Made by a program: the position numbers and the translations under genes
Part shown: positions 38,884 through 59,827 of the stretch, piece by piece
Layout: every line of letters starts with the position of its first letter
Numbering within the stretch: position 1 is the first letter of the stretch
The notes under the pieces: model-generated
Databases searched by the model: none
What the model saw: the letters and a program-made list of their open reading frames with translations, nothing else
What the model was told of the DNA's origin: nothing
DNA from: Candidatus Neomicrothrix parvicella RN1
GTDB lineage: Bacteria; Actinomycetota; Acidimicrobiia; Acidimicrobiales; VFJN01
Length of the DNA: 64,000 nt
Reading direction: 5' to 3'
Assembly (NCBI GenBank): GCA_945898515.1
Contig: CAMDIH010000002.1
Coordinates: 6,603-70,602, forward strand

Positions 38884-38897
38884 GAGCTAGGCGGAGG

Positions 38898-40489: not shown

Positions 40490-40510
40490 GGCGACCGAGC
40501 GTAGGAGGGC

Positions 40511-41809
40511 TTAGGCGTCCAAGACCAACCCGTGCACCCGGGCGGCCCGGCGGGCCGCGCCCACCGTGTAGAGCGACCCGGTGATGAGGACCACATCGGA
40601 TACCGCCGCCGTCGCCAGAGCCAACGCGACGGCTTCCCCCACATCGGGAACCACCCGCGCCCGCCCTCCGAGACGCGTCACCACCGCCGCTAGGTCCGCC
40701 GCCGGAAGGGCCCGGGGCGAATCCGGGGTACAGCAGACCACCTCAACCGCGTCCTCCGCCCCCAATATCTCTAGCAATTCGCGGGGGTCGCGCCCGTCGA
40801 GCACCCCCACCACGAGGTATCGATCGCCGCGCACCGCAAACCCACTGACCAGCGCCTCCGCTACCGCCTGCGCGCCGCCGGGATTGTGGGCGCCGTCGAG
40901 GATCACCAGCGGGTCGCGCTGTAGCACCTCGAACCGACCCGGGTTGCGAACCGACGCAAAGGCTTCGGCCACCAGATCCCCGTCGAGGGGCCGGCCGAAA
41001 AATGCCTCGGTAGCGGCCAGAGCAAGGGACGCGTTGTCGCCTTGGTGGGCACCATGCAGGGCGAGAAACACCTCGTCATACCGCCCCCCCGGCGTGCGCA
41101 GATCGAGCACGCGCCCGCCCATCGCTAATGCGTTCCCGGTGCAGGCAAAGTCCACGTCGCGGTACCAGGTGGCCTCCGCAGGGGTAGCAGCAAACACCGC
41201 TGCAAGAGCTGGATCGGTTTCGCCCACCACAAAGGTGGACCCGGTCTTCACGATCCCCGCCTTCTCCTCGGCGATCCGACCCCGCCAATCACCCCGACCA
41301 TCGGTGTGATCGCGGTCGATGTTCGTGAGGACCGCCACCGCTGCGTCCACCACGTTGGTGGCATCCCAGCGGCCGAGTAATCCCACCTCCACCACCGCCG
41401 CTGCTACCGCTTCATCGGAGAACCACCGCAACGCCGCCGCGGTGAGCAGTTCGAAGTACGACGGGCGATGCTGAAGGAGCGACTCGACACGGGACAGATC
41501 GGTCAGCACCTCCGCCAGGGCGCTATCGGGGATCGCCACGCCATTGCGAGAGATGCGTTCGTTGATCGTCTCGAGATGTGGGCTCGTATAGGTGCCCACC
41601 GTGAGATCGTGGGCACCGAGCAGGGCGGTGACGAGTCGGGCCACCGAGCCTTTCCCATTGGTGCCGGTGATGTGGATGGTGGGCTGCTGGTGCTGGGGGT
41701 CACCGAGAACCGCGCACAGCTCCCGCATCTGGTCGAGCTTCAGACCCTCAACGCGACCGGCTACGGCTGGGCTTGTCTCGAGATTGATGTGCTGGCCCAA
41801 CCAGGCCAA
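40511..41809 (-). CDS. folC: bifunctional folylpolyglutamate synthase/dihydrofolate synthase
   Basis: Mur-ligase P-loop 'HITGTNGKGS'; FolC-like length. Confidence 0.85.
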   Translation of the reverse strand: MAWLGQHINLETSPAVAGRVEGLKLDQMRELCAVLGDPQHQQPTIHITGTNGKGSVARLVTALLGAHDLTVGTYTSPHLETINERISRNGVAIPDSALAEVLTDLSRVESLLQHRPSYFELLTAAALRWFSDEAVAAAVVEVGLLGRWDATNVVDAAVAVLTNIDRDHTDGRGDWRGRIAEEKAGIVKTGSTFVVGETDPALAAVFAATPAEATWYRDVDFACTGNALAMGGRVLDLRTPGGRYDEVFLALHGAHQGDNASLALAATEAFFGRPLDGDLVAEAFASVRNPGRFEVLQRDPLVILDGAHNPGGAQAVAEALVSGFAVRGDRYLVVGVLDGRDPRELLEILGAEDAVEVVCCTPDSPRALPAADLAAVVTRLGGRARVVPDVGEAVALALATAAVSDVVLITGSLYTVGAARRAARVHGLVLDA

Positions 41810-41823
41810 CGCCTCGGGGAGGT

Positions 41824-43098
41824 TCAGGACGCTGCTCGCCGCGGGCGCTGCTGGGCCGGCGCGTCCTTGCGCTTCACCAGAGTGGGGTTGACCTTATCCA
41901 GCACGACATCGCGATCGATGACGCACTTCTGCACATCGGTGCGGGAGGGGAGGTCGTACATCACATTGAGGAGCACCTCTTCGAGGATGGCCCGAAGGCC
42001 ACGAGCACCCGTGCCGCGCAACAGGGCCTGATCGGCTACCGCGTCGAGGGCGTCGTCGGAGAACTCCAATTCGACGTCTTCCAACTCGAAGAACTTCTGG
42101 TACTGCTTCACCAGGGCGTTCTTGGGCTCCACCAGGATCCGGACCAAGGCCTCCCGGTCGAGTGGCGCCACCGCGCTGAGTACCGGCAGGCGGCCGATGA
42201 ACTCGGGGATGAGACCGAACTTGATGAGGTCCTCGGGAAGCACACTGGCCAGCGCTGCCCCCGGGTGCTTCTCCTCATGCTTGCGGATGTCGGAGGTGAA
42301 GCCGATGCCTTTGGAACCAAGACGACCCTCAATGATCTTTTCGATCCCGGCAAACGCTCCGCCGCAGATAAAGAGCACATTGGTGGTGTCGATCTGGATG
42401 AACTCTTGGTGGGGGTGCTTGCGTCCCCCTTGCGGCGGAACCGACGCGGTGGTCCCCTCCAAGATCTTGAGGAGGGCCTGCTGCACACCTTCGCCTGAGA
42501 CATCGCGGGTGATCGACGGGTTCTCGCTCTTGCGGGCGACCTTGTCGATTTCGTCGATGTAGATAATCCCTGTCTCAGCCTTCTTCACGTCGTAGTCGGC
42601 GGCTTGAATGAGCTTGAGGAGGATGTTCTCCACGTCTTCACCGACGTACCCCGCCTCGGTAAGAGCGGTGGCATCGGCGATGGCGAAGGGCACGTTCAGC
42701 ATGCGAGCGAGCGTCTGCGCCAGGAGGGTCTTTCCACAACCGGTGGGACCGAGCAAGAGAATGTTCGACTTCGCCAGTTCCACCTCGTCGTGGTGGCTGG
42801 CACCGAACTGAACTCGCTTGTAGTGGTTGTAGACCGCCACGGCAAGGATCTTCTTGGCGTGGTCCTGACCGATGATGTAGTCGTTCAGGAACTCGTAGAT
42901 CTCCTGGGGCTTAGGGAGTTCGTCGAAGCGCATCTCCGATGTCTCGGAAAGCTCCTCCTCGATGATTTCGTTGCACAGATCGATGCACTCATCACAGATG
43001 TAGACCCCCGGGCCGGCGATCAACTTCTTCACCTGCTTCTGAGACTTACCGCAGAACGAGCACTTGAGAAGCTCGCCCCCATCCCCGAATTTGGCCAT
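41824..43098 (-). CDS. clpX: ATP-dependent Clp protease ATP-binding subunit ClpX
   Basis: Zn-finger '[26 protein letters not shown]', Walker A 'GPTGCGKT' and 'IIYIDEIDK'. Confidence 0.97.
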
Positions 43099-43133
43099 GT
43101 TGCTGACCCCCGTTTGCCTCTCGTACCTGCTGG

Positions 43134-43790
43134 TTAGCTAGCCCGAGTGATCGGGCCAGCATTATCGGCCAAGGTTCGGGCCGTGATGACTTCGTCGATG
43201 ATGCCGTACGCGAGCGCCTCATCGGCGGACATCACGAAATCTCGCTCCGTGTCCCGGTGGATCTTCTCGGAGTCTTGGCCGGTGTGGTCGGCCAGTAATT
43301 CGTCGAGTTGGATGCGCATCCGGAGAATCTCACGGGCCGCCAGTTCCACATCGGTGGCCTGCCCACCGGCTTGGCCCCACGGTTGGTGGAGTAGCACCCG
43401 GGAATGAGGAAGGGCCAGCCGCTTGCCCTTGGTGCCGGCGGCGAGGAGTACGGCGGCCGCACTAGCAGCCTGCCCGAAACAAATCGTGCTGATATCGGGC
43501 TTCACGAAACTCATCGTGTCGTAGATGGCAAACAACGCGGTGATGTCGCCGCCGGGGCTATTGATGTAGATGTTGATGTCGCGGTCGGGGTTCTCCGACT
43601 CGAGGTGAAGCAACTGAGCGCAGACCAAGTTGGCGATCGTGTCGTCGATGGGCGTGCCCAAAAAAATGATGCCGTCTTTGAGGAGTCGGCTGTAGAGGTC
43701 ATAGGCCCGCTCGCCTCGGTTGGTCGACTCGACGACCGTGGGAACGAGGTAGTTCCGGATCACCGTTTCGTGCTGCCCGATGATGTCCAT
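43134..43790 (-). CDS. clpP: ATP-dependent Clp protease proteolytic subunit
   Basis: '[18 protein letters not shown]', '[14 protein letters not shown]' (catalytic Ser) and 'LLHQP' (His). Confidence 0.95.
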
Positions 43791-45181
43791 CAGTCTTGGT
43801 CGTCCGTTTCGTCGGCGACCTCGTCGGTCGCGGTGGGGGGGATTTCGTTGGTATCGGCTTCTTCGGGTGGGATCTCAAGCTCACTGCGCTCGATTTTGAC
43901 ACCCTCGGGGTCGAGAAGTTCAACCTTTTCGAGTAGCCACTCCAGCGCTTTGCGCTTCTTGATGTCTGAGCGTACCGCCGAGATCTGCCCCACGCTCTCG
44001 AATCGCTCACGCACCTCATCAACACTCTGGCCTACCCGCTCAGCCACCTCTTCGAGTTCGGTGAGGAGGTCCTCGTCGGTGCAGTCGATTCCCTCGGCGA
44101 CCGCTACCGCTCGCAGCGCCAGGTCCACTTTTACCCCGGAGGTGGCGGTGTCGCGAAGTTCCTGACTGAACTGCTCCGGGTCGGTGCCGGTCATCTGCAA
44201 GTACTGGTCGAGTTGCATGCCCTGGGCTTGTAGGCGCATGGCGAGGTCTTGAAAACGCTCCTGCATTTCGTGGTTCACCATTGCTTCGGGGAGGTCGTCG
44301 GTGACCAGCGCCGCAAGGGCTTCGCCGGTCTTTTCGCGCAGAGCCATCTGGGCTTGGGCGGTCCGGACCCGCGTCATGCGGTCGATGAGGCTGGCCCGGA
44401 GTTCGTCGAGCGTTTCGAACTCGGATGCCGTGGCAGCCCAGGCATCGTCGAGGTCGGGAAGGACCTTCTCCCGCACGTCCTTGAGAGCAAGTTCGAAGAG
44501 CAGTTCGCGCCCTTCGTCGGGATCGGGGTGGGTGGCCGCGAAGGCGAGCGCCGCTCCGGCGGTGGCCCCGAGGAGGTTCTCGTCAACCTCCGGGCTGATC
44601 GCTCCCGAGCCCACCGTGTAACTGTAATCATCGGCGGTAAGCCCCGATTGAGCCTCGCCATCCAGGGTGCCAGCGATGTCGATGGTGACGGTGTCGCCGT
44701 TTTGTACCGGCCGATCAACCGACTCGAGGGTGCTGTTGCTCTCACGCATACGACCGAGTTGGGCATTGATGGCGTCGTCGTCGGGGGCGGGACGTTCCAA
44801 CGTGACCGACAGCCCGCCATACCCGGGCACCTCAATGGAGGGCCGCACCTCCACGACGGCATCGAAGGCCACGTTGCCACCCTCGTGCCCGCCCGTCACA
44901 TCAATCTCAGGAGGAGCGATGACATCGACGTCGTGCTCGATGACGGCGGCGCTGTAGTACTCCGGAAGGGAATCCTGCATCGCCTGCTCCCGGCCCACCA
45001 GCGGACCAAGGCGGGCTTCGAGGACCTTGCGAGGGGCTTTACCGGGCCGGAAACCGGGGAGGCGCACCTCCTTGGCGATCTTTCTGAAGGCGACGGTGAT
45101 GGCCTCTTCGAACTCGGCCGCCTCCACCTCAACGGACAACTTGACCTTGTTCCCCTCGAGGGGTGCGACGGTGCTCTTCAT
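43790..45181 (-). CDS. tig: trigger factor
   Basis: '[27 protein letters not shown]...[15 protein letters not shown]'. ATG at 45181; the longer ORF to 45286 would run into tRNA-Pro. Confidence 0.9.
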
Positions 45182-45260
45182 GCGGACACCTACTGTATCG
45201 GCCGACGCGAGGGTCCCCGACATGCATCTGCCCTCCGAGGGCCTATCGTGCACCCGGTCA

Positions 45261-45335
45261 CGGGGAGTAGCGCAGTGGTAGCGCACCTGCTTTGGGAGCA
45301 GGAGGTCGGGGGTTCAAATCCCCCCTCCCCGACCA
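45261..45335 (+). tRNA. tRNA-Pro (anticodon TGG), CCA encoded
   Basis: Hand-folded cloverleaf: acceptor CGGGGAG/CTCCCCG, anticodon arm CCTGC-TTTGGGA-GCAGG, T-arm GGGGG-TTCAAAT-CCCCC. Confidence 0.9.
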
Positions 45336-45362
45336 GCTCCGCTACCGTCAGCCACGGAATCT

Positions 45363-45437
45363 GCGGGTGTAGCTCAACGGCTAGAGCCCCAGCCTTCCAA
45401 GCTGGTGGTGCGGGTTCGATTCCCGTCACCCGCTCCA
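45363..45437 (+). tRNA. tRNA-Gly (anticodon TCC), CCA encoded
   Basis: Acceptor GCGGGTG/CACCCGC, anticodon arm CCAGC-CTTCCAA-GCTGG, T-loop TTCGATT. Confidence 0.9.
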
Positions 45438-45464
45438 CGGTAGACCTGCGCACTCGCAGTCAGA

Positions 45465-45513
45465 GCCCACGCCACCCGGGTAAGGGTTCGTCAGTCGGGT
45501 GACCCGCGTGGGC
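45465..45513 (+). terminator. GC-rich hairpin downstream of tRNA-Gly
   Basis: 'gcccacgccacccg' pairs with 'cgggtgacccgcgtgggc' (14 bp with a 4-nt bulge). There is no clear U-tract, so its function is uncertain. Confidence 0.35.
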
Positions 45514-45604
45514 CCAGCGCCCGCCGTGCCTCGATCCTCCTCCAAGTCACCGAGTGTGCCTACGCTGCTGACGTGACTGCGGCCACCGGACCGGGCGGCG
45601 TCCG

Positions 45605-46319
45605 GTGAGCGATCCCCAAGGCGACCGGCTGCTCGAACCGAGCCCGTTGAGGCGCCGGTTGGTGTCGATCGAGGCCGCGGCCATCGCCGGGATCATCTGC
45701 GCAGTCGGGTGGTCCCTCTCACTGCGGGGCCTGCTCGCCGCCCCCGACATCGGCGCGCCCGACGCCGAGATCGTCCGGTTCTACGCCGATCCCGCGACCG
45801 GAACGGCCGCGGTGGCCTGGCTGCAGGTGCTGGTGTTCTCGACGATCGCGTTCCTGTGGTTCGTCGGGGTGGGTGCGGGGGCGGATCGGCGACAAGGAGC
45901 CGAAGCTGTTCGGCACCGTGTTCCTCGGCGCCAGCATCCTCCTGGCCGGGCTCCTGTTCCTGGGGGCCTCGCTCCTGGCGGCACCGTCGCTGCTCGTCGC
46001 CGTCGGCGACAAGGCGCCCGCGCCAGGCGCCGCGTCCCTCACCCGAGCCGCCGCCGCGGTGCTGTCGGTGTTCGCCCCCCGGATCGCCACGCTGGTGATG
46101 TTCTCGACGGCGAGCCTCGGCCGGGCCACCGGCGCCCTCCCCCGCTGGCTGGTGTGGCTCACCTTCGCGGTGGGCGCCGTCGAGCTCGTGAACTTCTCCA
46201 TCGCCATCCCGACGATCTACCTCGTGCCCGCCTGGATCGCCCTGGTCAGCATCGTGCTGCTCGTCCGTCACCCTTCGCATGCCTTCGAGCTCGACCAGCA
46301 ACCGGCTGGGGAACCCTGA
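45605..46319 (+). pseudogene. polytopic membrane protein interrupted by a +1 frameshift near 45870
   Basis: Hydrophobic TM-like sequence runs in frame 45605 up to '...FSTIAFLWFVGV'. It then continues in the frame of ORF 45873..46319 ('RGRIGDKEPKLFGTVFLGASILLAGLLFLG...'). The switch falls in the G-run 'tcggggtgggtgcggggg'. Confidence 0.5.
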
Positions 46320-46340
46320 CAGCCGCCAGCCGAGTACCGA

Positions 46341-48011
46341 TCAGCGGTGCGCCTCGACCCACGCCAGCGCGTCCGCGTAGGCGCGCTTGACCGTCGCGCC
46401 GACGCGCTCGTCACCCGGGTACACGCTGTCGGCGCCGATCACCTCGGTGATCCCGGTAACGGCCAGCTGCTCGATGAGCCGCTCGTTGGCCGACACGATC
46501 ATCAGCCGGCTGTCGACGGCTTCCAATGCCTTCGCATAGCGGTGCAGGACGTCCATGAAGGTGGTCCCCAGGTCGCTGCGGCCCCGCATCCGGAGGATGA
46601 CCACCGAGTTGGTCGACCCCGGCCCGACGGTCGGAAGCGTCGCCTCGAAGACGGGCGCCGCCGCGAAGAACAGGCTCCCGTACGGCTGCAGCACCACCAC
46701 CTCGTGGGCGGGCAGCTCCGCCGGCGGGTCCACCTCGACCAGGTGGCCATCTGGGTCGAGGATCCGACGGCGGGCCGTCACCTGGTTGGACTGGCGCGTG
46801 ACGTGAAGGATCACCGATAGGCCCACTCCCAAGAACACCGCGTACTGGAGCGGCATCACCAAGGTCAGCAGGAACGTGACGCTCAGGACCGCCTTCTGCA
46901 CCGAGCCTGTCCTCCACACCGACTGCAGATCGGCCGCGCTGATCGTCCGGTAGCCGATGAGCATCAACAGCCCCGCCAATGCCGCCATCGCGATGTGGCC
47001 GACGGCCTCGCCGAACAGGAGGATCACCAGCGCCATCACGACCGCCGCGACCAGCAGCGACTGACGAGACCGGGCGCCGGCCTCCTTGTTGATCGCCGAC
47101 CCCGACACCGACCCTCCCACCGGCATGCCCTGCAGGACGCCGGACGCCACGTTGGCGGCGCCCTGACCGATGAAGTCGCGGGAGGCGTCCGGATAGCTGC
47201 CGTCTGGATTCGGGTAGTTCGCCGAGATGCCCGAGCCCTGCACCAGTCCGACGAAGGCCAGCGAGACGGCCGGCAGGACCAACAACGGCACCAGCCGCAG
47301 GAGCGGCAGCTCCGGGCTGGGCAACGAGTCGGCGACGATGCCCAGATCACTGAGCGTGGCGACGCTGCTCCAACCGGCCAGCGCCGCCGCCGCCGCGGAG
47401 GTCGCGAGGACGGCGACGACCAGGCCGAGTGAACCCAGGCGAGTCCGCTCGAGCAGCACGATCAGGGCGATGGTCGCCAGACCGATGAACAGGGTGCGGG
47501 CGTCCCACTCGCCCGGGTGGATGAGGGTGTTGAGGGCACGGGTTAGCCGGTTGGCTCCCTCCGCGCTGTAGCCGGTCAGGTTGACAAGCTGGCCGAGCAC
47601 GATGTTCACGCCGACCGCGTTGATGAAACCGACCATCACGGCATTCGAGACGAACCGCAGGACCGTCCCGAGTCGCAGCAAGCCCGCCGCGAGCATCGCC
47701 ACCCCCGTGAGCACCGACAGGGTCACCAACGCCCGCGTCGGGTCGTCCGCATCACGGATGGCAGGCACATCGGCGATCACCATCGCCATCGCTCCCGTGC
47801 CCTGCACCGCCATGAACGACGAGCTCGTGAACAGTGCCCCCGTCGCCGTCCCCACCATGTAGCCGTAGAGCCCGGCCAGCGGGTTCACCCCGGCTAGCAG
47901 ACCGGTCGCGAGACCGTCAGGAACCGACTGCACCCCCAGCACCAGGCCGGCCACTCCGTCCTCTTTCAGAGTCCGCCTCTGGAACGGCCCCCGCCGCCTC
48001 GCCGCCTCCAT
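46341..48011 (-). CDS. SulP family inorganic anion transporter with C-terminal STAS domain
   Basis: 'AGLVLGVQSVPDGLATGLLAGVNPLAGLYGYM' is the SulP N-terminal signature. It has many TM segments and a C-terminal STAS-like domain ('VVVLQPYGSLFFAAA...VILRMRG'). The ORF extends to 48077. Confidence 0.85.
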   Translation of the reverse strand: MEAARRRGPFQRRTLKEDGVAGLVLGVQSVPDGLATGLLAGVNPLAGLYGYMVGTATGALFTSSSFMAVQGTGAMAMVIADVPAIRDADDPTRALVTLSVLTGVAMLAAGLLRLGTVLRFVSNAVMVGFINAVGVNIVLGQLVNLTGYSAEGANRLTRALNTLIHPGEWDARTLFIGLATIALIVLLERTRLGSLGLVVAVLATSAAAAALAGWSSVATLSDLGIVADSLPSPELPLLRLVPLLVLPAVSLAFVGLVQGSGISANYPNPDGSYPDASRDFIGQGAANVASGVLQGMPVGGSVSGSAINKEAGARSRQSLLVAAVVMALVILLFGEAVGHIAMAALAGLLMLIGYRTISAADLQSVWRTGSVQKAVLSVTFLLTLVMPLQYAVFLGVGLSVILHVTRQSNQVTARRRILDPDGHLVEVDPPAELPAHEVVVLQPYGSLFFAAAPVFEATLPTVGPGSTNSVVILRMRGRSDLGTTFMDVLHRYAKALEAVDSRLMIVSANERLIEQLAVTGITEVIGADSVYPGDERVGATVKRAYADALAWVEAHR

Positions 48012-48196
48012 CCCGTTGCTCACACCCCCGGATCCTATTGGGTGAGCGCCCGTCTGCGTTTCGCCCCGGCGGTCCACCGATGCTCCACCTTCTGCCCACG
48101 CGTGTCGCGCCGGTCCTCGTTGGTCGGCGGGGTCACCCTCCCCTGCGCCGCGCGAGGCATGGCCACCTCCGACTGACGCTCTTAGCCGGTCGGGTT

Positions 48197-48243
48197 GGCG
48201 CCTCCGGCAGGATTCGAACCTGCGACCGTCGGATTAGAAGTCC
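48197..48243 (-). repeat. 3'-half fragment of a tRNA-Arg(TCT)-like gene
   Basis: The first 27 nt ('gcgcctccggcaggattcgaacctgcg') are identical to the 3' part of the full tRNA-Arg at 51052-51125, and about 15 of the next 19 nt match. The upstream sequence has no D-arm or acceptor 5' strand. Confidence 0.8.
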
Positions 48244-48408
48244 CACAAGACGGGTGTTTGCTCGTCGCCCCTAGTTGGCTCTGGTCCACGTTTACCCTGC
48301 TTAGAGCCCCTATTCACGGGACTGGTTAGAACAGGCCGGCACCGGCACAACGGGAGTTGGTCACGCTCTCGTGACCATTCTGTGACCACCGGCCGGGCTA
48401 GGCGGATC

Positions 48409-48801
48409 TCACCCGGTCGCTGCGGAGATGATGCTGACGAGGATAATTGCACCGAAGATGCCGACGCCGATCCATCCGAGAACAATTCCAACGGTCGCCA
48501 TTCCTCCGCCCTGCTGTGTGCCCCGCATTTCGTCGATTTGTTTCCGGGCCATGTAGCCGAACACCAGAGCCAGAACCGACCCGATCCAATAGATCCACAC
48601 GATCCCGAGGACCATCGACGCGACGGCCATCCCGTTGGTGGTCCGCTGGACATAGCCAAACTGGATCGGCGCAGCGAGTTGGCCGGGTGGCGGGGGTAGC
48701 GCTGCCGTCTCCGGCGGGTACAACTTGCCGTCGCTCGCGGCCCACCACCCCGGACCCTGGCTCTGCTCGCTCACTGAACCCCCGGCCTCCACCCACGCCA
48801 C
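48409..48801 (-). CDS. DUF4190-like small membrane protein with N-terminal 'GWW..DGKLYPP' motif
   Basis: Pro-rich linker, then two TM segments 'MAVASMVLGIVWIYWIGSVLALVFGYMARKQI' and 'ATVGIVLGWIGVGIFGAIILV'. Confidence 0.6.
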   Translation of the reverse strand: MAWVEAGGSVSEQSQGPGWWAASDGKLYPPETAALPPPPGQLAAPIQFGYVQRTTNGMAVASMVLGIVWIYWIGSVLALVFGYMARKQIDEMRGTQQGGGMATVGIVLGWIGVGIFGAIILVSIISAATG

Positions 48802-48904
48802 TTGTGGTCGAGACCCTAAGCGTCAACTAGCCGAGGGCGGCGAGGAAGCGGCGGCACGCGTCGTTAAGGCGGGAATCGACCAGCCTGGCGGGGGCGGTAG
48901 TGGG

Positions 48905-49114
48905 TCAGTCTGGAGCCCGCCTCCAGGGTCTTGGAACGACCTCCGGGCCCTTGGCCCCTGCGTCGGTGCGTGAGCCTGGTCCGATCCGCACGAGGGGCCC
49001 GGGGCAACGATGCACGGGGCAGGCGGTCACGGGGCCGCTCGCGTGGATCAGGTGCCCTCTGGCGCATTGGTACTGGTACGGCGGGACGTACTTCGCATCG
49101 GCTCGCGTGGCCAT
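48905..49114 (-). CDS. small Cys/His-containing protein (possible zinc-binding), unknown function
   Basis: 69-aa ORF with 'YQCARGHLIHASGPVTACPVHRCPG'. The ATG is preceded by 'AGAGGA' at about 5 nt. Confidence 0.3.
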   Translation of the reverse strand: MATRADAKYVPPYQYQCARGHLIHASGPVTACPVHRCPGPLVRIGPGSRTDAGAKGPEVVPRPWRRAPD

Positions 49115-49264
49115 GGCGATCCTCTAGGCCGTGGTGCCGTTGGCATCACTGTTGGCATCACCGGGACAGCCGAGACCGGCCGACACCAGCCGACAGAGCC
49201 ATCGGGTGATGCCCGGAACTCCAGGTAGAGCCGACAAAGGCCGACACCAGCCAACGACCGGAGG

Positions 49265-49309
49265 TGCTTTGGGAGCAGGAGGTCGGGGTTCAAATCCCCC
49301 ATCCCCGAC
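49265..49309 (+). repeat. 3'-half fragment of tRNA-Pro(TGG)
   Basis: 'tgctttgggagcaggaggtcggggttcaaatcccccatccccgac' compared with the full gene's 'tgctttgggagcaggaggtcgggggttcaaatcccccctccccgac'. There is no 5' half upstream. Confidence 0.85.
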
Positions 49310-49359
49310 GGGTTCTCCCGCTCACGGAAGGTGGTTCCACTCGCGATAGCCTGCCGGTG

Positions 49360-50091
49360 ATGAAGCCCGTCGATGCTGTGGTGGAGCGTCCCGTGGTGTT
49401 CTTCCACGTGATGAAGTGCGCGGGATCCTCGGTGCGGGAGGGCCTCACCATGGGCCTGGCCGGATATCGAGACGGCCCTGAGGTCTTCGAGCTCGACGGA
49501 AACGCGGCCAAGACCGCGGCGGGCGGCACCGTGAGCGGTGATCTGGCGTTTCGAGATGTGCTCCTTCCCTACGTGGTGGCGACCCAACATCCGGCAGTGG
49601 TCCTCGGCCACTTTCGCTACCGGGATTACCACGCGCCCCTCATGGAAGCCGCGCACCTAACCACCGTCCTGCGCGATCCGGTTGAGCGCCTTGTCTCGCT
49701 CCACGCCTATCGGCGTCACCAGCCCGGTGTGGTACTTCCGGTCTCACGTGATCTGAGGGAGCAGATCGCTTCCAAACAGTGGAACCACGAGGGCCATCGA
49801 TACGTCTCCACCTTCTGCGGGCGTGATGACCTTGACCCATACTCAGAGGAGGCGATCGCCACCGCCGTGGCGAACCTCCGACGGTTCGCTGTCGTCGGTT
49901 CGGTTGAACGACTCGACGACTTCGCGGCACGAGTCTCAGCGCTAGTGGGCGCGCCGATCGCGTTTCCCGTGCTCAACACCCGGCCCGCCCTTGCGGTCAC
50001 CGAGACCGACCCTGAGTTTATGGCCGTGATGCGTGATCTGTGTGCGGCCGACATCGCGGTCTACGAGCAGGTCACCGGCTTCGCCAGCTAG
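49360..50091 (+). CDS. sulfotransferase family protein
   Basis: 5'-PSB-like 'FFHVMKCAGSSV' and 3'-PB-like 'RDPVERLVSLHAY' PAPS-binding motifs. ATG at 49360; the longer ORF from 49264 would begin inside the tRNA-Pro fragment. Confidence 0.72.
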   Translation: MKPVDAVVERPVVFFHVMKCAGSSVREGLTMGLAGYRDGPEVFELDGNAAKTAAGGTVSGDLAFRDVLLPYVVATQHPAVVLGHFRYRDYHAPLMEAAHLTTVLRDPVERLVSLHAYRRHQPGVVLPVSRDLREQIASKQWNHEGHRYVSTFCGRDDLDPYSEEAIATAVANLRRFAVVGSVERLDDFAARVSALVGAPIAFPVLNTRPALAVTETDPEFMAVMRDLCAADIAVYEQVTGFAS

Positions 50092-50136
50092 GGCTGGAGC
50101 CATCTGGAAGCGCCGGACTACCCTCTCCGGAACCCT

Positions 50137-50208
50137 GCGGGTGTAGCTCAACGGCTAGAGCCCCAGCCTTCCAAGCTGGTGGTGCGGGTTCGATTCCCGT
50201 CACCCGCT
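50137..50208 (+). tRNA. tRNA-Gly (anticodon TCC), second identical copy, no encoded CCA
   Basis: Identical by eye to 45363-45434. Followed by 'ccg' instead of 'cca'. Confidence 0.9.
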
Positions 50209-50448
50209 CCGCGCAGACCCACCGCCGCTCGTTGGCTGGCCCCCTAACCCCACTGGGGCTGGCTGGGCAACCGCCAGAGCCACCCAGTCGGCTGGACGCA
50301 ATGCACCGGCGCGCTCAAGTAATCCCTGGCTCCCGCCGACAACTTGAGGGCGCACCCCGGCGCACCACATCCAGGAGCTGACATTGTTCAACGCCCGCCC
50401 CACCACCAAGACCGCTGGTCTGGCATCGACGCAGGACCCGATGCCCTC

Positions 50449-51012
50449 ATGATGGCCACCACCCAACTCACCGCCTCTGGGCATCCCATCGAGATGCGCC
50501 ACGTCATCGGCTGGTACGCCGGTCGAGGAGTCCGGATCGTGGTGGCAGCCGCCGCCGCCCTCGCCGTCATCGCCACGATTTCGCTCCTGGTGCTGGCGGT
50601 CAGCAGCTACCGCCCGATGATTGTGCGGGGCGAAGGCATGGAGCCAATCTTCTCTACCGGTGACGTCGTCGTCAGTCAGGTCGTGGCGGCCTCGTCCATC
50701 AAAGCCGGTGACGTCGTGACCTACGTCGATGGAATGCGCGGAGGCGCGCTGGTCACCGAGCGAGTGCTGGAGGTGACGGCGAGCGACTCCGAGTACTCCT
50801 TCACCACGATGGGTGCCGGCAGGACCTCCGTTGAGCATCTCGCCGTTGCCATCGACGGCGAAATCGGCCGGATCGCCTACCAGCCCCCCGGGCTTGGTCG
50901 GATCCTCGACCTGACCACCTCCGCCACCGCCCGACTCGCTGCCATGGCGCTCGTCGCACTCCTGTTGATCCGTCCGGTGGTACAACGAGCCCGCCTCGAA
51001 CTGAGCCTCTAG
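50449..51012 (+). CDS. SipW/ER-type signal peptidase I homolog lacking catalytic residues
   Basis: N- and C-terminal TM anchors. 'VRGEGMEPIFSTGDVVV' aligns to 'SGSMEP..TGD', 'GDVVTYV...LVTERV' aligns to 'GDVITF...VTHRI', and 'TTMGAGRT' aligns to 'TKGDNN'. The ORF begins at 50344. Confidence 0.62.
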   Translation: MMATTQLTASGHPIEMRHVIGWYAGRGVRIVVAAAAALAVIATISLLVLAVSSYRPMIVRGEGMEPIFSTGDVVVSQVVAASSIKAGDVVTYVDGMRGGALVTERVLEVTASDSEYSFTTMGAGRTSVEHLAVAIDGEIGRIAYQPPGLGRILDLTTSATARLAAMALVALLLIRPVVQRARLELSL

Positions 51013-51051
51013 ACGGCGGCGGCGCCACCTGGCCCTCATCGGGGCTCGGGG

Positions 51052-51125
51052 CGCCTCCGGCAGGATTCGAACCTGCGGCCATCGGAATAGAAATCCGCTG
51101 CTCTGTCCAGCTGAGCTACGGAGGC
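51052..51125 (-). tRNA. tRNA-Arg (anticodon TCT)
   Basis: Reverse complement: acceptor GCCTCCG/CGGAGGC, D-arm GCTCAGCTGGACAGAGC, anticodon loop TTTCTAT, T-arm GCAGG-TTCGAAT-CCTGC. Confidence 0.88.
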
Positions 51126-51209
51126 AGAGCCGAGCGTAGGCCGCGAGGTGAGCCGGTCAATCACGGTTGAGGCGGGCCCTTCCCCCTAGCCTATGCTGGC
51201 ACCTCCCGT

Positions 51210-51287
51210 GGTGGCCGTAGCTCAGTTGGTTAGAGCGCCAGGTTGTGATCCTGGATGTCGGGGGTTCGAATCCCCTCGGTCACCCCA
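51210..51287 (+). tRNA. tRNA-His (anticodon GTG) with G-1, CCA encoded
   Basis: Extra 5' G opposite C73. Anticodon arm CCAGG-TTGTGAT-CCTGG, T-arm GGGGG-TTCGAAT-CCCCT. Confidence 0.9.
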
Positions 51288-51358
51288 TGCCACTGGTAAA
51301 CCAACCAACAGTGGGCTTCGTAGCCTGGGCCAACAGCGCCTAGGCTGCCAGCCCACTT

Positions 51359-51432
51359 GCCCCTCTAGCTCAACTGGTCAGAGCGTCGGACTCTTAATCC
51401 GTAGGTTCTGGGTTCGAGTCCCAGGGGGGGTA
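51359..51432 (+). tRNA. tRNA-Lys (anticodon CTT)
   Basis: D-arm GCTCAACTGGTCAGAGC, anticodon loop CTCTTAA, T-arm CTGGG-TTCGAGT-CCCAG. The acceptor stem has G-U pairs. Confidence 0.85.
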
Positions 51433-51437
51433 CGCCG

Positions 51438-51478
51438 CACCTACCAGGGCTTTCCAGAGCGAAGGCCCTGGTAGGGCC
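51438..51478. repeat. 41-nt hairpin-containing repeat, copy 1 (just 3' of tRNA-Lys)
   Basis: 'cacctaccagggctttccagagcgaaggccctggtagggcc'. It has an internal 11-bp stem, cctaccagggc/gccctggtagg. Confidence 0.7.
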
Positions 51479-51645
51479 AGGGTGCGGCCGGTTCGGCGGG
51501 TAGTAGATGCCCCCACGATCGAGCGGCGATCAGCTACAGGGGCGCGAACAGGGGCGCAACTACTACGGGGCCCGGATCCTGCGGCTCACGAGCGTCGCAC
51601 GTCGCGACTGGGCCACTCGGCGACCACCCGATACCATCAGCGTCG

Positions 51646-52026
51646 ATGTCTCTGCGCCTGTCCCGTTGGACCGCTGTGTTGGTCCTTCCGCTGTTGGCGG
51701 GCGCCCTCCTCCTGATGCACGGCCTCGACGCCGGGGCGAGCGAGGCGGCTCCGCACGCCTCTGTCTCCGGGTCAGCGCCTCACGAGCACCACTCCGCCCC
51801 GGTGCACGACGAGGACCACGGCTGCGACGACTGCGCCGGTCACCTAATGGCAGCCTGTCTCGCCGTAGTTGCGAGCATCGCGACCTTCTCGCTAGCTCGA
51901 CGGATGATCCGGGGCCGATGGACTACGAGCACACCGTCCATTTTGTCGCATCTGATCCGGAGGGCACGAGAGCTACTGCCACCGCCAGACCCCGTGTGGG
52001 TTCGGCTCGCGGTCATTCAACGTTGA
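51646..52026 (+). CDS. small membrane protein with His/Cys-rich segment (possible metal-binding)
   Basis: Signal/TM 'WTAVLVLPLLAGALLLMHGL', then 'HEHHSAPVHDEDHGCDDCAGH', then a second TM segment. Lies upstream of the cupredoxin gene. Confidence 0.45.
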   Translation: MSLRLSRWTAVLVLPLLAGALLLMHGLDAGASEAAPHASVSGSAPHEHHSAPVHDEDHGCDDCAGHLMAACLAVVASIATFSLARRMIRGRWTTSTPSILSHLIRRARELLPPPDPVWVRLAVIQR

Positions 52027-52106
52027 AGCAGCACTCCTTCATCTGAACCCGCGACGTCTATCGCGTCGCGTCCACCCATTCCGGTTCTCTCGAAAGGAGC
52101 GCTCTC

Positions 52107-52559
52107 ATGCGCCGCACCCTCACCTTCGCTCTACCCCTGTTTGCCCTCGCCCTCGCTCTCGGCGCCTGCGGCGATACCAACGACACCGACGACTCCGCCA
52201 CCGGAGGCACCACCCCTCGGACAATCGAGATCGAGATGCGCGACAACACCTACTCCCCTGACGCCGTGAGCGTAGAAGCTGGTGAGGAAGTGCGGTTCGT
52301 GTTCACCAACTCCGGCAAGGCCACCCACGATGCCTTCATCGGCGACGAGGCAGCCCAGGGCGACCACGAGATGGAGATGAACGGCGACATGGGCGGCGAG
52401 GACCACACGATGGGAGAAGCCGACGCGCTCACGGTCGCACCCGGCGACAGCGGTGAGCTCGTTCACACCTTCGAGTCCGGGGACGACGGACTGCTCATCG
52501 GCTGCCACGAGCCCGGCCACTACGAGGGCGGCATGCGCCTCAGCATCGAGGTCTCCTGA
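52107..52559 (+). CDS. cupredoxin-domain (type 1 copper) lipoprotein
   Basis: Lipobox 'LALGAC'. Copper ligands are 'H' in 'ATHDAFIG' and 'CHEPGHYEGGM' (C-x3-H-x4-M). Confidence 0.8.
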   Translation: MRRTLTFALPLFALALALGACGDTNDTDDSATGGTTPRTIEIEMRDNTYSPDAVSVEAGEEVRFVFTNSGKATHDAFIGDEAAQGDHEMEMNGDMGGEDHTMGEADALTVAPGDSGELVHTFESGDDGLLIGCHEPGHYEGGMRLSIEVS

Positions 52560-52566
52560 GGACGCC

Positions 52567-52720
52567 ATGAATGTCGTGGCCGTCCTCGCCTCGATCCCTA
52601 GCCCCAGCAGCAACGCCATCCACTTTGGACCGTTCCAGCTCCGCGCCTACGGCCTCGCCATTGCCGTTGGCGTCATCGTGGCCGTGCTCTTCGCACAGCG
52701 ACGATGGGCCGCTCGCCCCA
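52567..52720 (+). pseudogene. lgt: N-terminal fragment (~50 aa) of prolipoprotein diacylglyceryl transferase
   Basis: 'MNVVAVLASIPSPSSNAIHFGPFQLRAYGLAIAVGVIVAVLFAQRRWAAR' matches the conserved Lgt N-terminus (IPSP...GP..R.Y). Lgt-like hydrophobic sequence stops after this point in all frames. Confidence 0.6.
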
Positions 52721-53076
52721 GGCCATCGAGATCGCTATGCAGCGCCCGAGGTTCCTCGACACGATCGAGGGTGCGATCCCGATCATCTCCACCGACACCG
52801 ACCCGGACGACGACGAGCACATCATCGATGTAGAGGCCATCGAGGGTTAGGCCCGTACAAGCATCTAGCCGGGCCGTACGTCGGCTCCAAGTGTGGCGAG
52901 GTATCTCCGGACCCTTCACACCGTTGGCACGGCTAGAGGTTGAGCCGAGCTCGCCCTCGACCGCGGCGGGGTTCTGGGACCGTGGCCGAGCCCACGAGTC
53001 CACGCCCACCGCGTTCCGCATGGGAATGACCTCAACCCGCAGATCAGGGGCTTACAACCGAACGCAGCGCCAGCAC

Positions 53077-53409
53077 CTACCTCGCAGAGAGCGCGGCACG
53101 AAGTTCCTCGACGCGCCTGGGTACGGCGCTCCACCAGACCCATCGACCCTGCTTCTCGCCCACAATCAGTCCAGCTTCGGCAAGGGCCTTCGTGTGGTGG
53201 CTGATCGTTGGTTGCGACTTCGATAGCGGCTCCAGGAGGTCGCACGAGCAGACCGGTCCGCTCGAGGCGATCAGGCTAAACAAGCGGAGGCGAACGGGGT
53301 CGCCCAACGCTGCGAACGCTCGGGCGAGAGGTTCGGCGTCGGCAGTATCGATGGGCTGAACGAGGACCGAACAGCAGCCCTCCGTTGTCGTGCCGGTCTT
53401 GGTCTCCAT
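53077..53409 (-). CDS. arsR: ArsR/SmtB family metalloregulator
   Basis: 'LGDPVRLRLFSLIASSGPVCSCDLLEPLSKSQPTISHHTKALAEAGLI' (winged HTH with a CxC site), plus an N-terminal 'CC' pair. Confidence 0.85.
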   Translation of the reverse strand: METKTGTTTEGCCSVLVQPIDTADAEPLARAFAALGDPVRLRLFSLIASSGPVCSCDLLEPLSKSQPTISHHTKALAEAGLIVGEKQGRWVWWSAVPRRVEELRAALSAR

Positions 53410-53426
53410 ACGTCCTCACTGTCGTA

Positions 53427-53473
53427 TTGACATCTGTCGATCTATTGCTACGGTGTCAATCGACAAGAGTCAA
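53427..53473. promoter_or_regulatory. imperfect inverted repeat in the arsR/arsI divergent region (candidate ArsR operator)
   Basis: 'ttgacatctgtcgat' (53427-53441) against 'atcgacaagagtcaa' (53459-53473); 12 of 15 complementary by hand. The region is visibly AT-richer than its surroundings. Confidence 0.35.
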
Positions 53474-53489
53474 TCTAAAAAAGGTCACC

Positions 53490-53939
53490 ATGTCTCGCCT
53501 ACAACTCGCTCTCAACGTCCCGAGCCTGGACGATGCCATCAGCTTCTACTCGAAGCTCTTCGCAACGGAGCCCCACAAGATCAAACCGGGCTACGCCAAC
53601 TTCGTCATTGCGGATCCGCCTCTGAAGCTCGTGCTCTTCGAACAGGCGGGCGCGGAGGCCCGGCTGAACCACCTCGGGATCGAAGTCCCGTCCAGCGAAG
53701 ACGTCAGCGCCCACCAGGCTCGGCTTGCCGACGACGGTCTTGCCCCGGTCGAGGAGAACGGCACCTGTTGCTTTGCTCAGCAGGACAAGGTGTGGGTAGA
53801 CGGACCCGACGGCCCATGGGAGATCTACACCGTGCTGGCCGATGCCGAGGACTTCGGCGCGTCGTCCACTCACACCGACGACTCCACCGATGCGTTGTGC
53901 TGCGGGTCAATGCCCGAAGCTCAAGTTCGCTGCTGCTGA
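53490..53939 (+). CDS. ArsI/CadI family VOC (glyoxalase-fold) metalloenzyme
   Basis: VOC fold 'LQLALNVPSLDDAISFY...LNHLGIEV', with vicinal cysteines 'GTCCFAQQDKVWV' as in ArsI C-As lyase, and a Cys-rich tail 'CCGSMPEAQVRCC'. Confidence 0.72.
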   Translation: MSRLQLALNVPSLDDAISFYSKLFATEPHKIKPGYANFVIADPPLKLVLFEQAGAEARLNHLGIEVPSSEDVSAHQARLADDGLAPVEENGTCCFAQQDKVWVDGPDGPWEIYTVLADAEDFGASSTHTDDSTDALCCGSMPEAQVRCC

Positions 53940-53943
53940 CTCA

Positions 53944-54645
53944 GTGGACCATCCCCTCTCCCGGCGCATCGCCGCCGAGGCCATCGGTACCGGGTTTCTC
54001 GTCGCCGCCGTAGTCGGCTCAGGGATCGCCGCCGAACGACTCTCGCCGGGAGAGGTCGGTCTCCAGTTGCTGGAGAACTCGACCGCGACGGTATTTGCGC
54101 TCACCGCTCTCATCCTCACGTTCGGATCGGTATCCGGAGCTCATTTCAATCCGGCGGTCACCCTCTCCGAACTCGCCGGAGGGCGGCTTCAACGACGTGC
54201 TGTACTCCCCTACATGGGCGCACAGGTCGCTGGAGCCTGCCTCGGCGCCATCCTGGCCAATCTGATGTTCGACCTGCAGGCCGTGACGGTCTCGACCAAC
54301 GATCGACTCACCCCGGCGACTTTCCTCTCGGAGATTGTCGCAACCTTCGGGCTCCTTACCGTGATCCTCGGCGTGGTGCGGTCCGGACGGTTTGCCGCTG
54401 TCCCGATCGCAGTGGCGGGCTACATCGGAGCCGCGTACTGGTTCACATCGTCTACGAGCTTCGCCAACCCCGCAGTCACGATCGCTCGAACCCTTTCCAA
54501 CACCTTCGCCGGGATCAGTCCTGGCTCTGCGCCCGCCTTCATCGCCGCTCAACTCATCGGTGCCGCGCTCGCCGTTCTGCTCGCTCGATTCCTATTCCCA
54601 GAACCAGAGCCCTCACTGCAGGAGGTCCTCAATGCCCGACGTTGA
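53944..54645 (+). CDS. MIP/aquaporin family channel (AqpS-like, probable arsenite channel)
   Basis: Two NPA boxes, 'HFNPAVTL' and 'FANPAVTIA'. GTG at 53944, directly after the arsI stop. Confidence 0.85.
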   Translation: MDHPLSRRIAAEAIGTGFLVAAVVGSGIAAERLSPGEVGLQLLENSTATVFALTALILTFGSVSGAHFNPAVTLSELAGGRLQRRAVLPYMGAQVAGACLGAILANLMFDLQAVTVSTNDRLTPATFLSEIVATFGLLTVILGVVRSGRFAAVPIAVAGYIGAAYWFTSSTSFANPAVTIARTLSNTFAGISPGSAPAFIAAQLIGAALAVLLARFLFPEPEPSLQEVLNARR

Positions 54646-54805
54646 CCCACCCGGCAACGACCAGCAACTCGCCATCAAGACCACGGCGAAAAACCGCCGC
54701 CACGACTTCGACAGCATCTTCGGAACAGGAACGCTCGAACTACTCTTGCCGGCGGGTTTGGAGCAGTTCGCGCACCGAACCAAGTTCACCAGATTCTTCC
54801 ATTGA
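54632..54805 (+). CDS. 57-aa ORF translationally coupled between the aquaporin and arsC, unknown function
   Basis: The ATG at 54632 is preceded by GGAGG (54621-54625) and lies inside the aquaporin 3' end. Its TGA overlaps the arsC ATG (TGATG at 54803-54807). Third codon positions are mostly G/C. Confidence 0.4.
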   Translation: MPDVDPPGNDQQLAIKTTAKNRRHDFDSIFGTGTLELLLPAGLEQFAHRTKFTRFFH

Positions 54806-55278
54806 TGGCGGAACGGTCCGCCCGGCAACGTCTCGACGCACCGGCGAAGGTCGAGGGCGAAAGCCATTCCGGCCTTCCGACCGTCCTGTTCCTATGCGTC
54901 CACAACGCCGGGCGATCGCAGATGGCACTCGGTTGGTTCAAACGTCTCGCCGGTGATCGAGCGGTCGCGTGGTCCGGCGGTTCCGAGCCCGGCAACGAAG
55001 TGAACCCCACGGCGATCACAGCAATGGCCGACGTCGGTATCGACATCACCGCCGAATTCCCCAAGCCATGGACTGACGAGATCGTTCAGGCGGCCGACGT
55101 GGTCGTCACCATGGGATGCGGAGACGCCTGCCCGTTTTTCCCAGGCAAGCGCTACGAGGACTGGGTGCTCGCTGATCCGGCCGGGCAGGGCATCGAAGCC
55201 GTCCGGCCCATCCGTGACGAGATCGAGCAACGGGTGCGCGATCTCCTTGCGTCGCTTGGAGTGGCGTCCCGGGACTAA
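54805..55278 (+). CDS. arsC: arsenate reductase, LMW-PTP type
   Basis: P-loop 'CVHNAGRS' (CX5R), and the downstream 'GCGDACP' cysteines typical of thioredoxin-coupled ArsC. Confidence 0.85.
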   Translation: MAERSARQRLDAPAKVEGESHSGLPTVLFLCVHNAGRSQMALGWFKRLAGDRAVAWSGGSEPGNEVNPTAITAMADVGIDITAEFPKPWTDEIVQAADVVVTMGCGDACPFFPGKRYEDWVLADPAGQGIEAVRPIRDEIEQRVRDLLASLGVASRD

Positions 55279-55286
55279 CGCCGGAG

Positions 55287-55820
55287 TCAGCGAGCAGGAA
55301 CGGGGAGGACTCTGCGAGCTCGTCCACCGCCTCCAGGACACCAACCGGCGGGCCCAAGCCCCGCTAGTGCCGAGTCGACATCACGAAGCTTGATCTCGCA
55401 GACCCCCATCGTCCGAGGGTCGCCAGGATCCAGGAACACCGACGATCCCGCGCCGCTGACCGACATCGACTCCTTCCTGTCGCGGCCGGCCAGTCCGTAG
55501 GGGTGCAGGGCGACATTGGGATCGTCTGCACACTCTGCCTGAAAGTCATCGATCGCCCCTGGCGCGGGTTCGAAGGCGTGAATGTGCAGGGTCGCAGGAC
55601 CCCGCTCGACCGCTCGCTTGAGAATCCGCCGGGCCCACTCCCCGCGGAACGCCCCGATGTCCAGGACCACGGCGGCCTCCGGGAGGTCGACGTCGATCAA
55701 GAGATCGGGGTCCGCGCCCGCGGCACGAAGGAACCCACGCATCGACCGCCGGTAGTCAACCGACTCCATCATGCTGAGTACCGCGGGGCTCAAACGCCCG
55801 CCCGTCGATGCCTCCGCCAT
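55287..55820 (-). pseudogene. FkbM-type SAM-dependent methyltransferase, apparently 3'-truncated
   Basis: 'VVLDIGAFRGEW' SAM motif and 'IHAFEPAPGA'. Homology-like sequence ends at '...EIKLRDVDSALAGLG', before the expected 'KIDxEG' block, and runs into a Gly/Arg/Pro-rich tail ending 9 nt from the arsC stop. Confidence 0.5.
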
Positions 55821-56093
55821 GCGGTTATCGGCTGCCGAAGTTTCCGCGGCACCTCATAGAGGTCTATCTGCTTTAAATCTTTACCCAACGGCGGCCCTCG
55901 GTGCAACCGTCGGCGGCGCGTGACCGGTTGAGGGCGAGCCATCGGTCTTGGTCACCTCGGAACCCTGGGGAAAGAGGCAGCGCAGCAACGCCGTCGGACT
56001 TGGTCGCCCGAGATCAATCCAGCCCTCCACTCCCCGAACCCAAGACGCTTCCCAGTGCCCAACCCAAGTTCGCTTGCGGACGGACCTAACCCA

Positions 56094-56134
56094 CACCCAC
56101 CAGGGCTCTTCACAGCGGCGACCCTGGTAGGGCC
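56094..56134. repeat. 41-nt repeat, copy 2
   Basis: 'cacccaccagggctcttcacagcggcgaccctggtagggcc'. About 34 of 41 positions are identical to copy 1 by ungapped hand alignment. Lies 15 nt from the anti-sigma stop. Confidence 0.7.
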
Positions 56135-56149
56135 GCGGCTCGGCCCCAC

Positions 56150-59822: not shown

Positions 59823-59827
59823 GCGGA

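Follow-up and report, generated by a model that had tools for sequence, protein, structure and literature searches.

Interleaved tRNA genes and tRNA halves in a Microthrixaceae tRNA cluster: two tandem Pro-to-Arg intervals and a possible decayed composite islet

We describe a tRNA cluster in a stretch of contig CAMDIH010000002.1 (assembly GCA_945898515.1), in which full-length tRNA genes alternate with displaced 3' halves of two of them. The whole stretch of 64 kb that was analyzed is referred to as the window, and coordinates are those of the window unless a related locus (designated L001, L002 and so on) is named. The elements follow each other in the order tRNA-Pro, a first tRNA-Gly (Gly1), a 3' half of tRNA-Arg (Arg'), a 3' half of tRNA-Pro (Pro'), a second tRNA-Gly (Gly2) and tRNA-Arg, as a first-pass annotation made from the sequence alone had reported. 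The locus consists of two tandem, non-identical copies of the Pro-to-Arg interval with a 1-kb linker between them: Pro 5' part + (Pro 3'-Gly1-X-Arg 3') + Y + (Pro 3'-Z-Gly2-W-Arg 3') + Arg 5' part, where X is a pseudogene plus a SulP gene, Y the linker, Z a sulfotransferase-like gene and W a SipW-like gene; a short gene remnant is called V'. In its alleles and its gene order, copy 1 corresponds to another clade of Microthrixaceae (L003/L038/L039), and the Gly2-W-Arg part of copy 2 is native. With moderate confidence, we infer that the locus, situated within a conserved tRNA cluster, is a decayed composite islet similar to a cis-mobilizable element (CIME), that it lacks its own recombinase and that it arose when a circle integrated at tRNA-Pro.

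The full-length genes were recovered by both ARAGORN and Rfam: tRNA-Pro(TGG), the resident gene, at 45261-45335 (+), two tRNA-Gly(TCC) genes at 45363-45437 (+, Gly1) and 50137-50210 (+, Gly2), and the resident tRNA-Arg(TCT) at 51049-51126 (-). The same programs place tRNA-His at 51211-51287 (+) and tRNA-Lys at 51359-51433 (+), which together (51211-51433) form the conserved right end of the cluster. The two tRNA-Gly genes, judged identical by eye in the first-pass annotation, are indeed identical over 74 nt, have the same mature sequence, and are embedded in a 79-nt repeat with one mismatch. ARAGORN also reports a 'tRNA-Ala(GGC)' at 10204-10298, which is probably a false positive, as its length (95 nt) and sequence are un-tRNA-like.

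Both claimed 3'-half copies align with their full genes. Pro' (49265-49309, +; blastn against the window) covers tRNA positions 28-73 without CCA and matches tRNA-Pro in 44/46 aligned columns (E 1.5e-14). It is decaying: the T stem has lost 1 nt and the acceptor stem carries one substitution. Arg' (48197-48243, -; repeat search, blastn and allele comparison) extends from the anticodon stem, at about tRNA position 29 as read off the sequence, to the 3' end and shares 43 of 47 bases with the resident tRNA-Arg; the first 28 are identical, and a 43-nt core gives an E of 1e-12. Both halves break in the anticodon stem (position 28-29), reach the 3' end and have the same orientation as the full gene. 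For Pro/Pro' as well as Arg/Arg', an intact tRNA gene and a displaced 3' fragment of the same tRNA bound an insert in direct orientation. Island tRNA fragments generally start at anticodon-arm or T-arm sublocations, and Pro' and Arg' conform to this rule. A blastn search with the tRNA genes found no further tRNA fragments in the window beyond these two.

Contigs assembled independently from other samples (L062, ERZ27280328; L066, ERZ27280224) contain this arrangement with 99.98% identity, and exact-protein look-ups place it next to the identical SulP protein in at least 13 contigs; thus, it is no one-off misassembly. Every contig encoding the identical SulP or SipW-like protein has the same arrangement, and these look-ups revealed no intermediate forms in the population.

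The conserved left flank of the cluster is formed by tig, the trigger-factor gene (43790-45223, -; Pfam Trigger_N and Trigger_C, gene calls on L062 and blastn of L067), which lies beside tRNA-Pro and places the window in uncultured Acidimicrobiales/Microthrixaceae. Among the species-representative genomes scanned, the closest relative is L001 (94% amino acid identity in tig). An alignment with close relatives, which the first-pass annotation had proposed, reveals the empty arrangement: L001, L002, L003, L036, L012 and L015 all read tig, then Pro-Gly-(0.4-1 kb)-Arg-His-Lys, and two further loci, L067 and L068, are likewise empty. The insert-free order in L001 and L067/L068 is tig-Pro-Gly-SipW-like-Arg-His-Lys, so that the extra DNA in the window is strain-specific and amounts to ~4.8 kb, reaching from the anticodon stem of tRNA-Pro to the promoter of the native tRNA-Gly. 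L001 is collinear with the window over 45151-45336 (tig-Pro) and again over 50131-51531 (Gly2 to Lys), the latter as a single ~1.4-kb alignment with 86% identity. Within 45440-50115, only the tRNA pieces and a single short flank have a counterpart at this locus in 43 related loci.

The insert-free L067 and L068 represent one strain, obtained from samples ERZ27280196 and ERZ27280197, the second of which also holds an insert-bearing contig. Up to the 3' end of tRNA-Pro (33134-45336), this strain is 99.4% identical to the window by blastn. It then continues as Pro-86 nt-Gly-W-Arg-His-Lys, and to the right of tRNA-Pro (45337-59421) it is 84-89% identical to the window and 96-98% identical to L001. 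Judging from these identities, the strain is a mosaic, in which homologous exchange between ~90%-identical lineages breaks exactly at the tRNA-Pro 3' end. Four relatives (L024, L038, L010 and L042) contain classical Pro-island-Pro' islets at the same tRNA-Pro site with differing cargo. Their Pro fragments start at position 28 (L024) or 31 (L038), and at positions 49 and 51 in the T arm in L010 and L042, respectively. Fragments of the tRNA-Gly 3' end are present in L029 and L124.

At the left end of copy 1, tRNA-Pro has an encoded CCA and is followed by a 27-nt spacer (45336-45362, +) of the 'short-spacer' type, as in L003, L038 and L039, whereas tRNA-Pro of L001, L002 and L036 lacks CCA and precedes long spacers. 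When the 40 nt upstream of Gly1 were scored against relatives (+1 per match, with penalties for mismatches and gaps), L039 and L038 reached 27 each, L003 21 and L001 4, and the region 45291-45439 is 96% identical to the Pro'-spacer-Gly segment of L038. Spacer and Gly1 (the latter from repeat and flank comparison) are, therefore, of the imported type. The 5' part of tRNA-Pro is native-type, since position 9 is the A of L001 and L002 and not the G of the short-spacer clade. By this comparison of alleles, the resident tRNA-Pro is a hybrid gene, with a native 5' part and a foreign CCA and spacer. Just 3' of Gly1, at 45465-45513, lies a long imperfect hairpin, GCCCACGC...GCGTGGGC, whose inner stem is CACCCG/CGGGTG; this hairpin may be a terminator or the remnant of a recombination site.

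X comprises two genes. A membrane-protein pseudogene (45605-46319, +; tblastn) had been described as frameshifted, and this holds: its halves are split between frames in the window and abut in one frame, as a single open reading frame (ORF), in L072, L112 and L099; in other assemblies, only the 148-aa second half is called. The second gene (46341-48011, -) encodes a SulP-family permease with a STAS domain (PF00916, E 7e-52; PF01740), a label that Pfam supports, and has homologs with 70-81% identity in several phyla. Together they occur as an intact convergent pair in L072, L099, L112, L131 and L088. The G+C content of X is 68-73%, versus about 59-65% in the tig-clpX flank.

The right end of copy 1 also matches the L003 clade. 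The stretch V' (48124-48196, +; alignment to L003) contains a relic of the final 17 codons of a bestrophin-like gene (PF14023), and V' together with Arg' (48124-48243) aligns to L003 8940-8838. The V' flank alone (48124-48169) matches the DNA adjoining the L003 tRNA-Arg at 37 of 46 bases (80%, E 9e-6). In L003, the corresponding gene (259 aa, PF14023) lies between tRNA-Gly and tRNA-Arg and abuts the latter. Arg' differs from the resident tRNA-Arg at four positions, in each case sharing the allele of L003, L042, L012, L015 and L008; the resident gene has that of L001 and L067. The foreign allele and the L003-type flank indicate that Arg' came within the imported DNA, along with Gly1 and the short-spacer flank.

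Copy 2 starts with Pro', which lacks CCA like tRNA-Pro of the closest relatives. Z (49360-50091, +), between Pro' and Gly2, encodes 243 aa; it had been labeled a sulfotransferase, for which there is some similarity, although both Pfam matches are below threshold (E 0.039 and 0.086). Z is absent at this locus in all relatives examined, and none of its five homologs found elsewhere (49-59% identity) is near a tRNA gene. Either an earlier insertion placed Z at this site, or Z is DNA specific to the lineage. Gly2 is native, as the window is collinear with L001 and L067 from 50131 onward; the flank upstream of Gly2 is not specifically L001-like. A conserved motif pair, (g)ttggagc and gctaccgtc separated by ~17 nt, is found ~10-45 nt before the tRNA-Gly gene in the window (50100-50136) and in L002, L036, L012, L015, L010 and L042, and looks like a tRNA-Gly promoter. 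The short-spacer genomes have only the second box (gctaccgtc), immediately 3' of tRNA-Pro.

W (50449-51012, +) is a homolog of SipW/archaeal-type signal peptidase I (TIGR02228, 59.7 bits with a cut-off of 51.85) without the catalytic serine. The suggestion of a catalytically dead signal peptidase is borne out by these data, but its placement among the cargo is not: a homologous gene occupies the collinear position between tRNA-Gly and tRNA-Arg in L001 and L002 (78% and 45% protein identity), and W is, therefore, ancestral. The catalytic position is Gly in the window and in L001 (8890-9450), and Thr in L002 (8868-9425). Since the gene is kept between the two tRNA genes in three species, the residues suggest a maintained non-catalytic homolog.

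At each end of the linker Y (~1 kb, 48244-49264), the adjoining tRNA half faces it with the truncated, anticodon-side end. Y contains one gene with a confirmed DUF4190 label (48409-48801, -; Pfam E 3e-18), whose best homologs share 66% (species-representative genomes) and 55% (JGI metagenomes) amino acid identity; only the coding part aligns. No homolog of the non-coding parts of Y was found in these two collections, and ~460 nt of Y have no family match. The 17-nt sequence GGCCGACACCAGCCRAC occurs as a direct repeat (49178-49194 and 49239-49255, both +; 61 nt apart) that ends 9 nt before Pro'. Two matches in the window compare with 0.06 expected, and one of 100 shuffles also gave two; the copies may be arm-type recombinase binding sites. 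A 165-nt low-G+C stretch beside Arg' folds no better than shuffled sequence (z = -0.8). A 20-nt inverted repeat (49247-49266/50220-50239) was set aside, as a rough estimate gives ~0.3 such pairs by chance in the region.

The first-pass annotation saw neither an integrase nor a transposase in the region, and Pfam searches agree. The linker and Pro' (48234-49656) gave no Pfam match at E up to 1 in ten reading frames of at least 67 aa, and the cargo ORFs gave no match to a recombinase family. Farther out (1-19800 and 51400-64000), the 25 of 36 Pfam families listed for frames with 200 aa or more include no integrase, recombinase or transposase family. The gene calls of the identical contigs, which cover about 19 to 56 kb, comprise housekeeping and cargo genes only, and no tyrosine or serine recombinase gene was found inside the island. 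The variable intervals of 17 relatives (150 ORFs) contained no strong integrase or recombinase match among the 25 best of 39 families listed; the sole mobility-related match, among the matches listed, was one IS3-type rve domain. Cargo in these intervals includes, for example, oxidoreductases, transporters, two-component systems, LigD and a prokaryotic RING protein. Thus, integrase-less islets are the rule at this hot spot. We know of no helper element in Acidimicrobiia, and, to our knowledge, no integrative elements have been characterized in this lineage.

In the scenario that we favor, a site-specific element would first have integrated at tRNA-Arg in a donor of the L003 clade, which joined the Arg 3' half to Y, with Y as the distal end of the element. 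In the Pro-to-Arg interval of this donor, SulP and its partner gene would already have replaced most of the bestrophin-like gene. A circular DNA consisting of Y and the donor interval would then have formed and recombined with the tRNA-Pro of the recipient within the 46-nt segment that begins in the anticodon stem and includes the 3' end, just as tyrosine integrases join an attP to an attB in a tRNA gene. The product would be a hybrid full-length tRNA-Pro, with the native Pro 3' half displaced 4 kb downstream. The recombinase would have acted in trans or have since been deleted. A hybrid tRNA-Pro next to a tRNA-Arg that keeps the allele seen in insert-free L001/L067 indicates that the last crossover in the lineage of the window was within tRNA-Pro, with none at tRNA-Arg. 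The interleaving is then explained, since Arg' would be the far end of the imported DNA. A site-specific origin is favored because the Pro segment starts at position 28 and classical Pro islets are present in L024, L038, L010 and L042; the Gly fragments of L029 and L124, the regenerated tRNA-Pro with its displaced half and, more tentatively, the 17-nt repeats before Pro' point the same way.

Several points weigh against this scenario. It leaves unexplained how a circle combining a chromosomal interval with Y was formed. The same order could be obtained by homologous recombination in tRNA-Gly, or by a double crossover between genomes that both contained Y-like DNA, and L067 shows that homologous exchange with a breakpoint at tRNA-Pro occurs in the population. 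No donor with SulP between tRNA-Gly and tRNA-Arg was found among 62 SulP loci, the contexts of which are unrelated. The searches for a parent of Y were uninformative, as DUF4190 homologs reach at most 66% amino acid identity and align in the coding part only. The flank upstream of Gly2 evolves too fast for a confident assignment as native. No viral contig contains an exact Pro or Arg 3' half, neither an integrase nor an excised circle was found, and genome, metagenome and viral collections yielded no parent element.

Two alternatives, both possible but rather unlikely in our judgment, replace the site-specific event by homologous recombination. In the first, a circle of Y plus a foreign Pro'-Z-Gly-X-Arg' interval would have been integrated by RecA-type recombination in the 74-79 nt of identical tRNA-Gly. 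A full-length repeat of this kind (79 nt, one mismatch) is unusual for the att site of an integrase and is expected for a Campbell-type homologous crossover, and the flank upstream of Gly2, which is not specifically L001-like, would also fit. However, a crossover in tRNA-Gly requires a short spacer in the native lineage, and the spacer is long in each of its nearest relatives (L001, L002 and L036). It also divides the L003-like features between a native spacer and a foreign bestrophin remnant and Arg', while integration at tRNA-Pro puts all of them on one imported piece, and it leaves the hybrid tRNA-Pro unexplained.

The second of these alternatives, to which we assign about the same low likelihood, holds that the tRNA-half junctions were made in other genomes and that the entire block was imported by homologous recombination from a related species, with no site-specific event in this lineage. 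Conserved tRNA genes and flanking core genes would provide the anchors for such an exchange, the L067/L068 mosaics switch exactly at the tRNA-Pro 3' end, and no integrase appears in the variable intervals of the 17 relatives, among the matches listed. A double crossover, however, substitutes one stretch of DNA for another and duplicates nothing. In the window, the repeated Pro segment begins at position 28, comparable to the fragments of L024 (28) and L038 (31), which points to a circle with just that segment, and the combination of a displaced Pro' without CCA and a full gene with CCA is the pattern predicted by integration at tRNA-Pro.

A more general proposal, which we regard as speculative and improbable, is that in Acidimicrobiia the intervals between two convergent tRNA genes move between species as units, by dual-site recombination resembling cassette exchange. 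One recombinase would act at the anticodon arm of tRNA-Pro and another at that of tRNA-Arg, both encoded elsewhere. If true, such exchange would explain why the islets here never carry their own integrase.

The first-pass annotation had interpreted the locus as an integration scar left by successive insertions. That the halves are integration-type scars, with empty sites in relatives and no integrase, is in agreement with our results; nested, independent site-specific insertions into the resident tRNA-Pro and the resident tRNA-Arg, followed by loss of the mobility genes, are very unlikely. The direct orientation of the halves with respect to the full genes and the break at the anticodon stem are as expected for such insertions, as are the missing integrase and the empty sites. 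However, independent insertions at two convergent tRNA genes would leave the pieces either as Pro, Pro', Arg', Arg or nested, never interleaved. In its allele, the resident tRNA-Arg agrees with L001 and L067, which lack the insert, and it is Arg' that has the allele of the other clade together with that clade's native flank. In addition, the supposed Arg element (48244-51050) would have to include native DNA, since W is ancestral. Least credible of all is a local tandem duplication of the Pro-to-Arg interval with subsequent divergence, or a chimera of the metagenome assembly from which the contig comes: the order is formally that of a tandem duplication, but the copies share only tRNA parts rather than full-length homology, their cargo is unrelated and the differences in Arg' are the allele of another clade and not random decay, while a chimera is contradicted by the 99.98% identity among independent assemblies of several samples and by contig names (k141_...) that suggest a final k-mer of 141, for which a 79-nt repeat would be too short to cause a false join.

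Aberrant excision that includes flanking host DNA, as in specialized transduction (lambda gal/bio), and recombinase-mediated cassette exchange offer parallels to the favored scenario. By analogy, the favored circle would carry att-adjacent chromosomal DNA and deliver it to the same site in a new host, and, as in cassette exchange, two different att sites (Pro and Arg) may be seen as bounding the transferred interval. Both comparisons remain analogies only, as no phage genes, recombinase or circle were observed here.

A regenerated tRNA gene and a displaced fragment are the marks of integrase-mediated islands (Islander, PMC4383910). As in such islands, the ends of the insert are marked here by an intact tRNA gene and a 3' fragment in direct orientation that starts in the anticodon stem, the insert is missing from close relatives, and the G+C content of the cargo is atypical. 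Unlike them, the insert lacks an integrase and includes a second tRNA-Gly and half of another tRNA, and at one end the imported DNA comes from the chromosome of a related species, not from an element. CIMEs retain their att sites and have lost their integration and transfer genes, and their accretion has been reviewed (PMC5704250). The locus corresponds to this description, with both att-like ends kept (Pro/Pro', 44/46) and no mobility genes found, and it resembles the accretion with gene capture described for ICESt1/ICESt3 of Streptococcus thermophilus (PMC5704250), in which composites grow by repeated use of one tRNA site and tandems capture neighboring DNA. CIMEs proper stem, through deletion, from an integrative and conjugative or an integrative and mobilizable element and can be mobilized in cis once a related incoming element has joined them by accretion; for the locus, the likeness to CIMEs consists in the retained att-like repeats without mobility genes. 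In contrast to accretion arrays, each att-like sequence is present in two copies: with one fragment each of Pro and Arg in 64 kb, the locus does not have the three or more att copies of the same tRNA that make a tandem array. In contrast to capture of the ICESt1/ICESt3 type, the captured DNA is the whole inter-tRNA interval of another species. Each ingredient is known by itself, from att sites in tRNA genes and decay into CIMEs to accretion and the capture of genes; the unusual part is that the entire inter-tRNA interval of another species stands in tandem with the native one, which results in interleaved scars and a duplicated tRNA-Gly.

Scars made of tRNA fragments are commonly used to map islands, on the assumption that each pair of tRNA and fragment delimits one island with an integrase inside. 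The locus shows that this logic can mislead, since the halves interleave because one of them came with the foreign allele of a whole imported neighboring interval. It also documents a recombination hot spot in the poorly studied, uncultured Microthrixaceae, where islets recurrently lack an integrase. The practical effect for the host is small, namely an extra tRNA-Gly and possibly genes for sulfate uptake or sulfation.

Additional islets and rearrangements were observed in relatives. In L038, a 3-kb islet without an integrase (6797-9848) lies between tRNA-Pro and a Pro 3' half; its genes for a 413-aa prokaryotic RING-finger protein (PF14447) and for a protein of 491 aa without a Pfam match might be a defense-type pair. 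A metagenome-assembled genome of Acidimicrobiaceae (L124) has a ~10-kb islet (5-10232) between tRNA-Gly(TCC) and a 43-nt Gly 3' half. Its cargo includes a SulP gene adjoining the tRNA, a sulfatase and a protein with virginiamycin-B-lyase repeats; no integrase was seen in it, and near 4130-4180 one ORF translation resembles a further tRNA fragment. Among the tig loci, those of L004, L009, L010, L032 and L040 have tRNA-Arg in the opposite orientation to that in the other relatives, and in L016 both the Arg-His-Lys block and tRNA-Pro are inverted; the tRNA cluster is, therefore, also prone to inversion.

Directly after tRNA-Lys, a second variable region (51531-56150) encodes a DUF6153 protein, a cupredoxin, an ArsR-type regulator, a glyoxalase-family protein, an MIP channel and a low-molecular-weight phosphatase, cargo of the arsenic/copper type. 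No tRNA-Lys fragment was found in the window. The same place is occupied by 2.1 kb of other DNA in L001, and by genes for a Big_1-domain protein and a 543-aa protein without a Pfam match in L067. At 55354, near a Methyltransf_21 gene, the otherwise identical L062 has ~476 nt of extra sequence (15995-16472), after which the identity is 94%; this is a strain-level indel.

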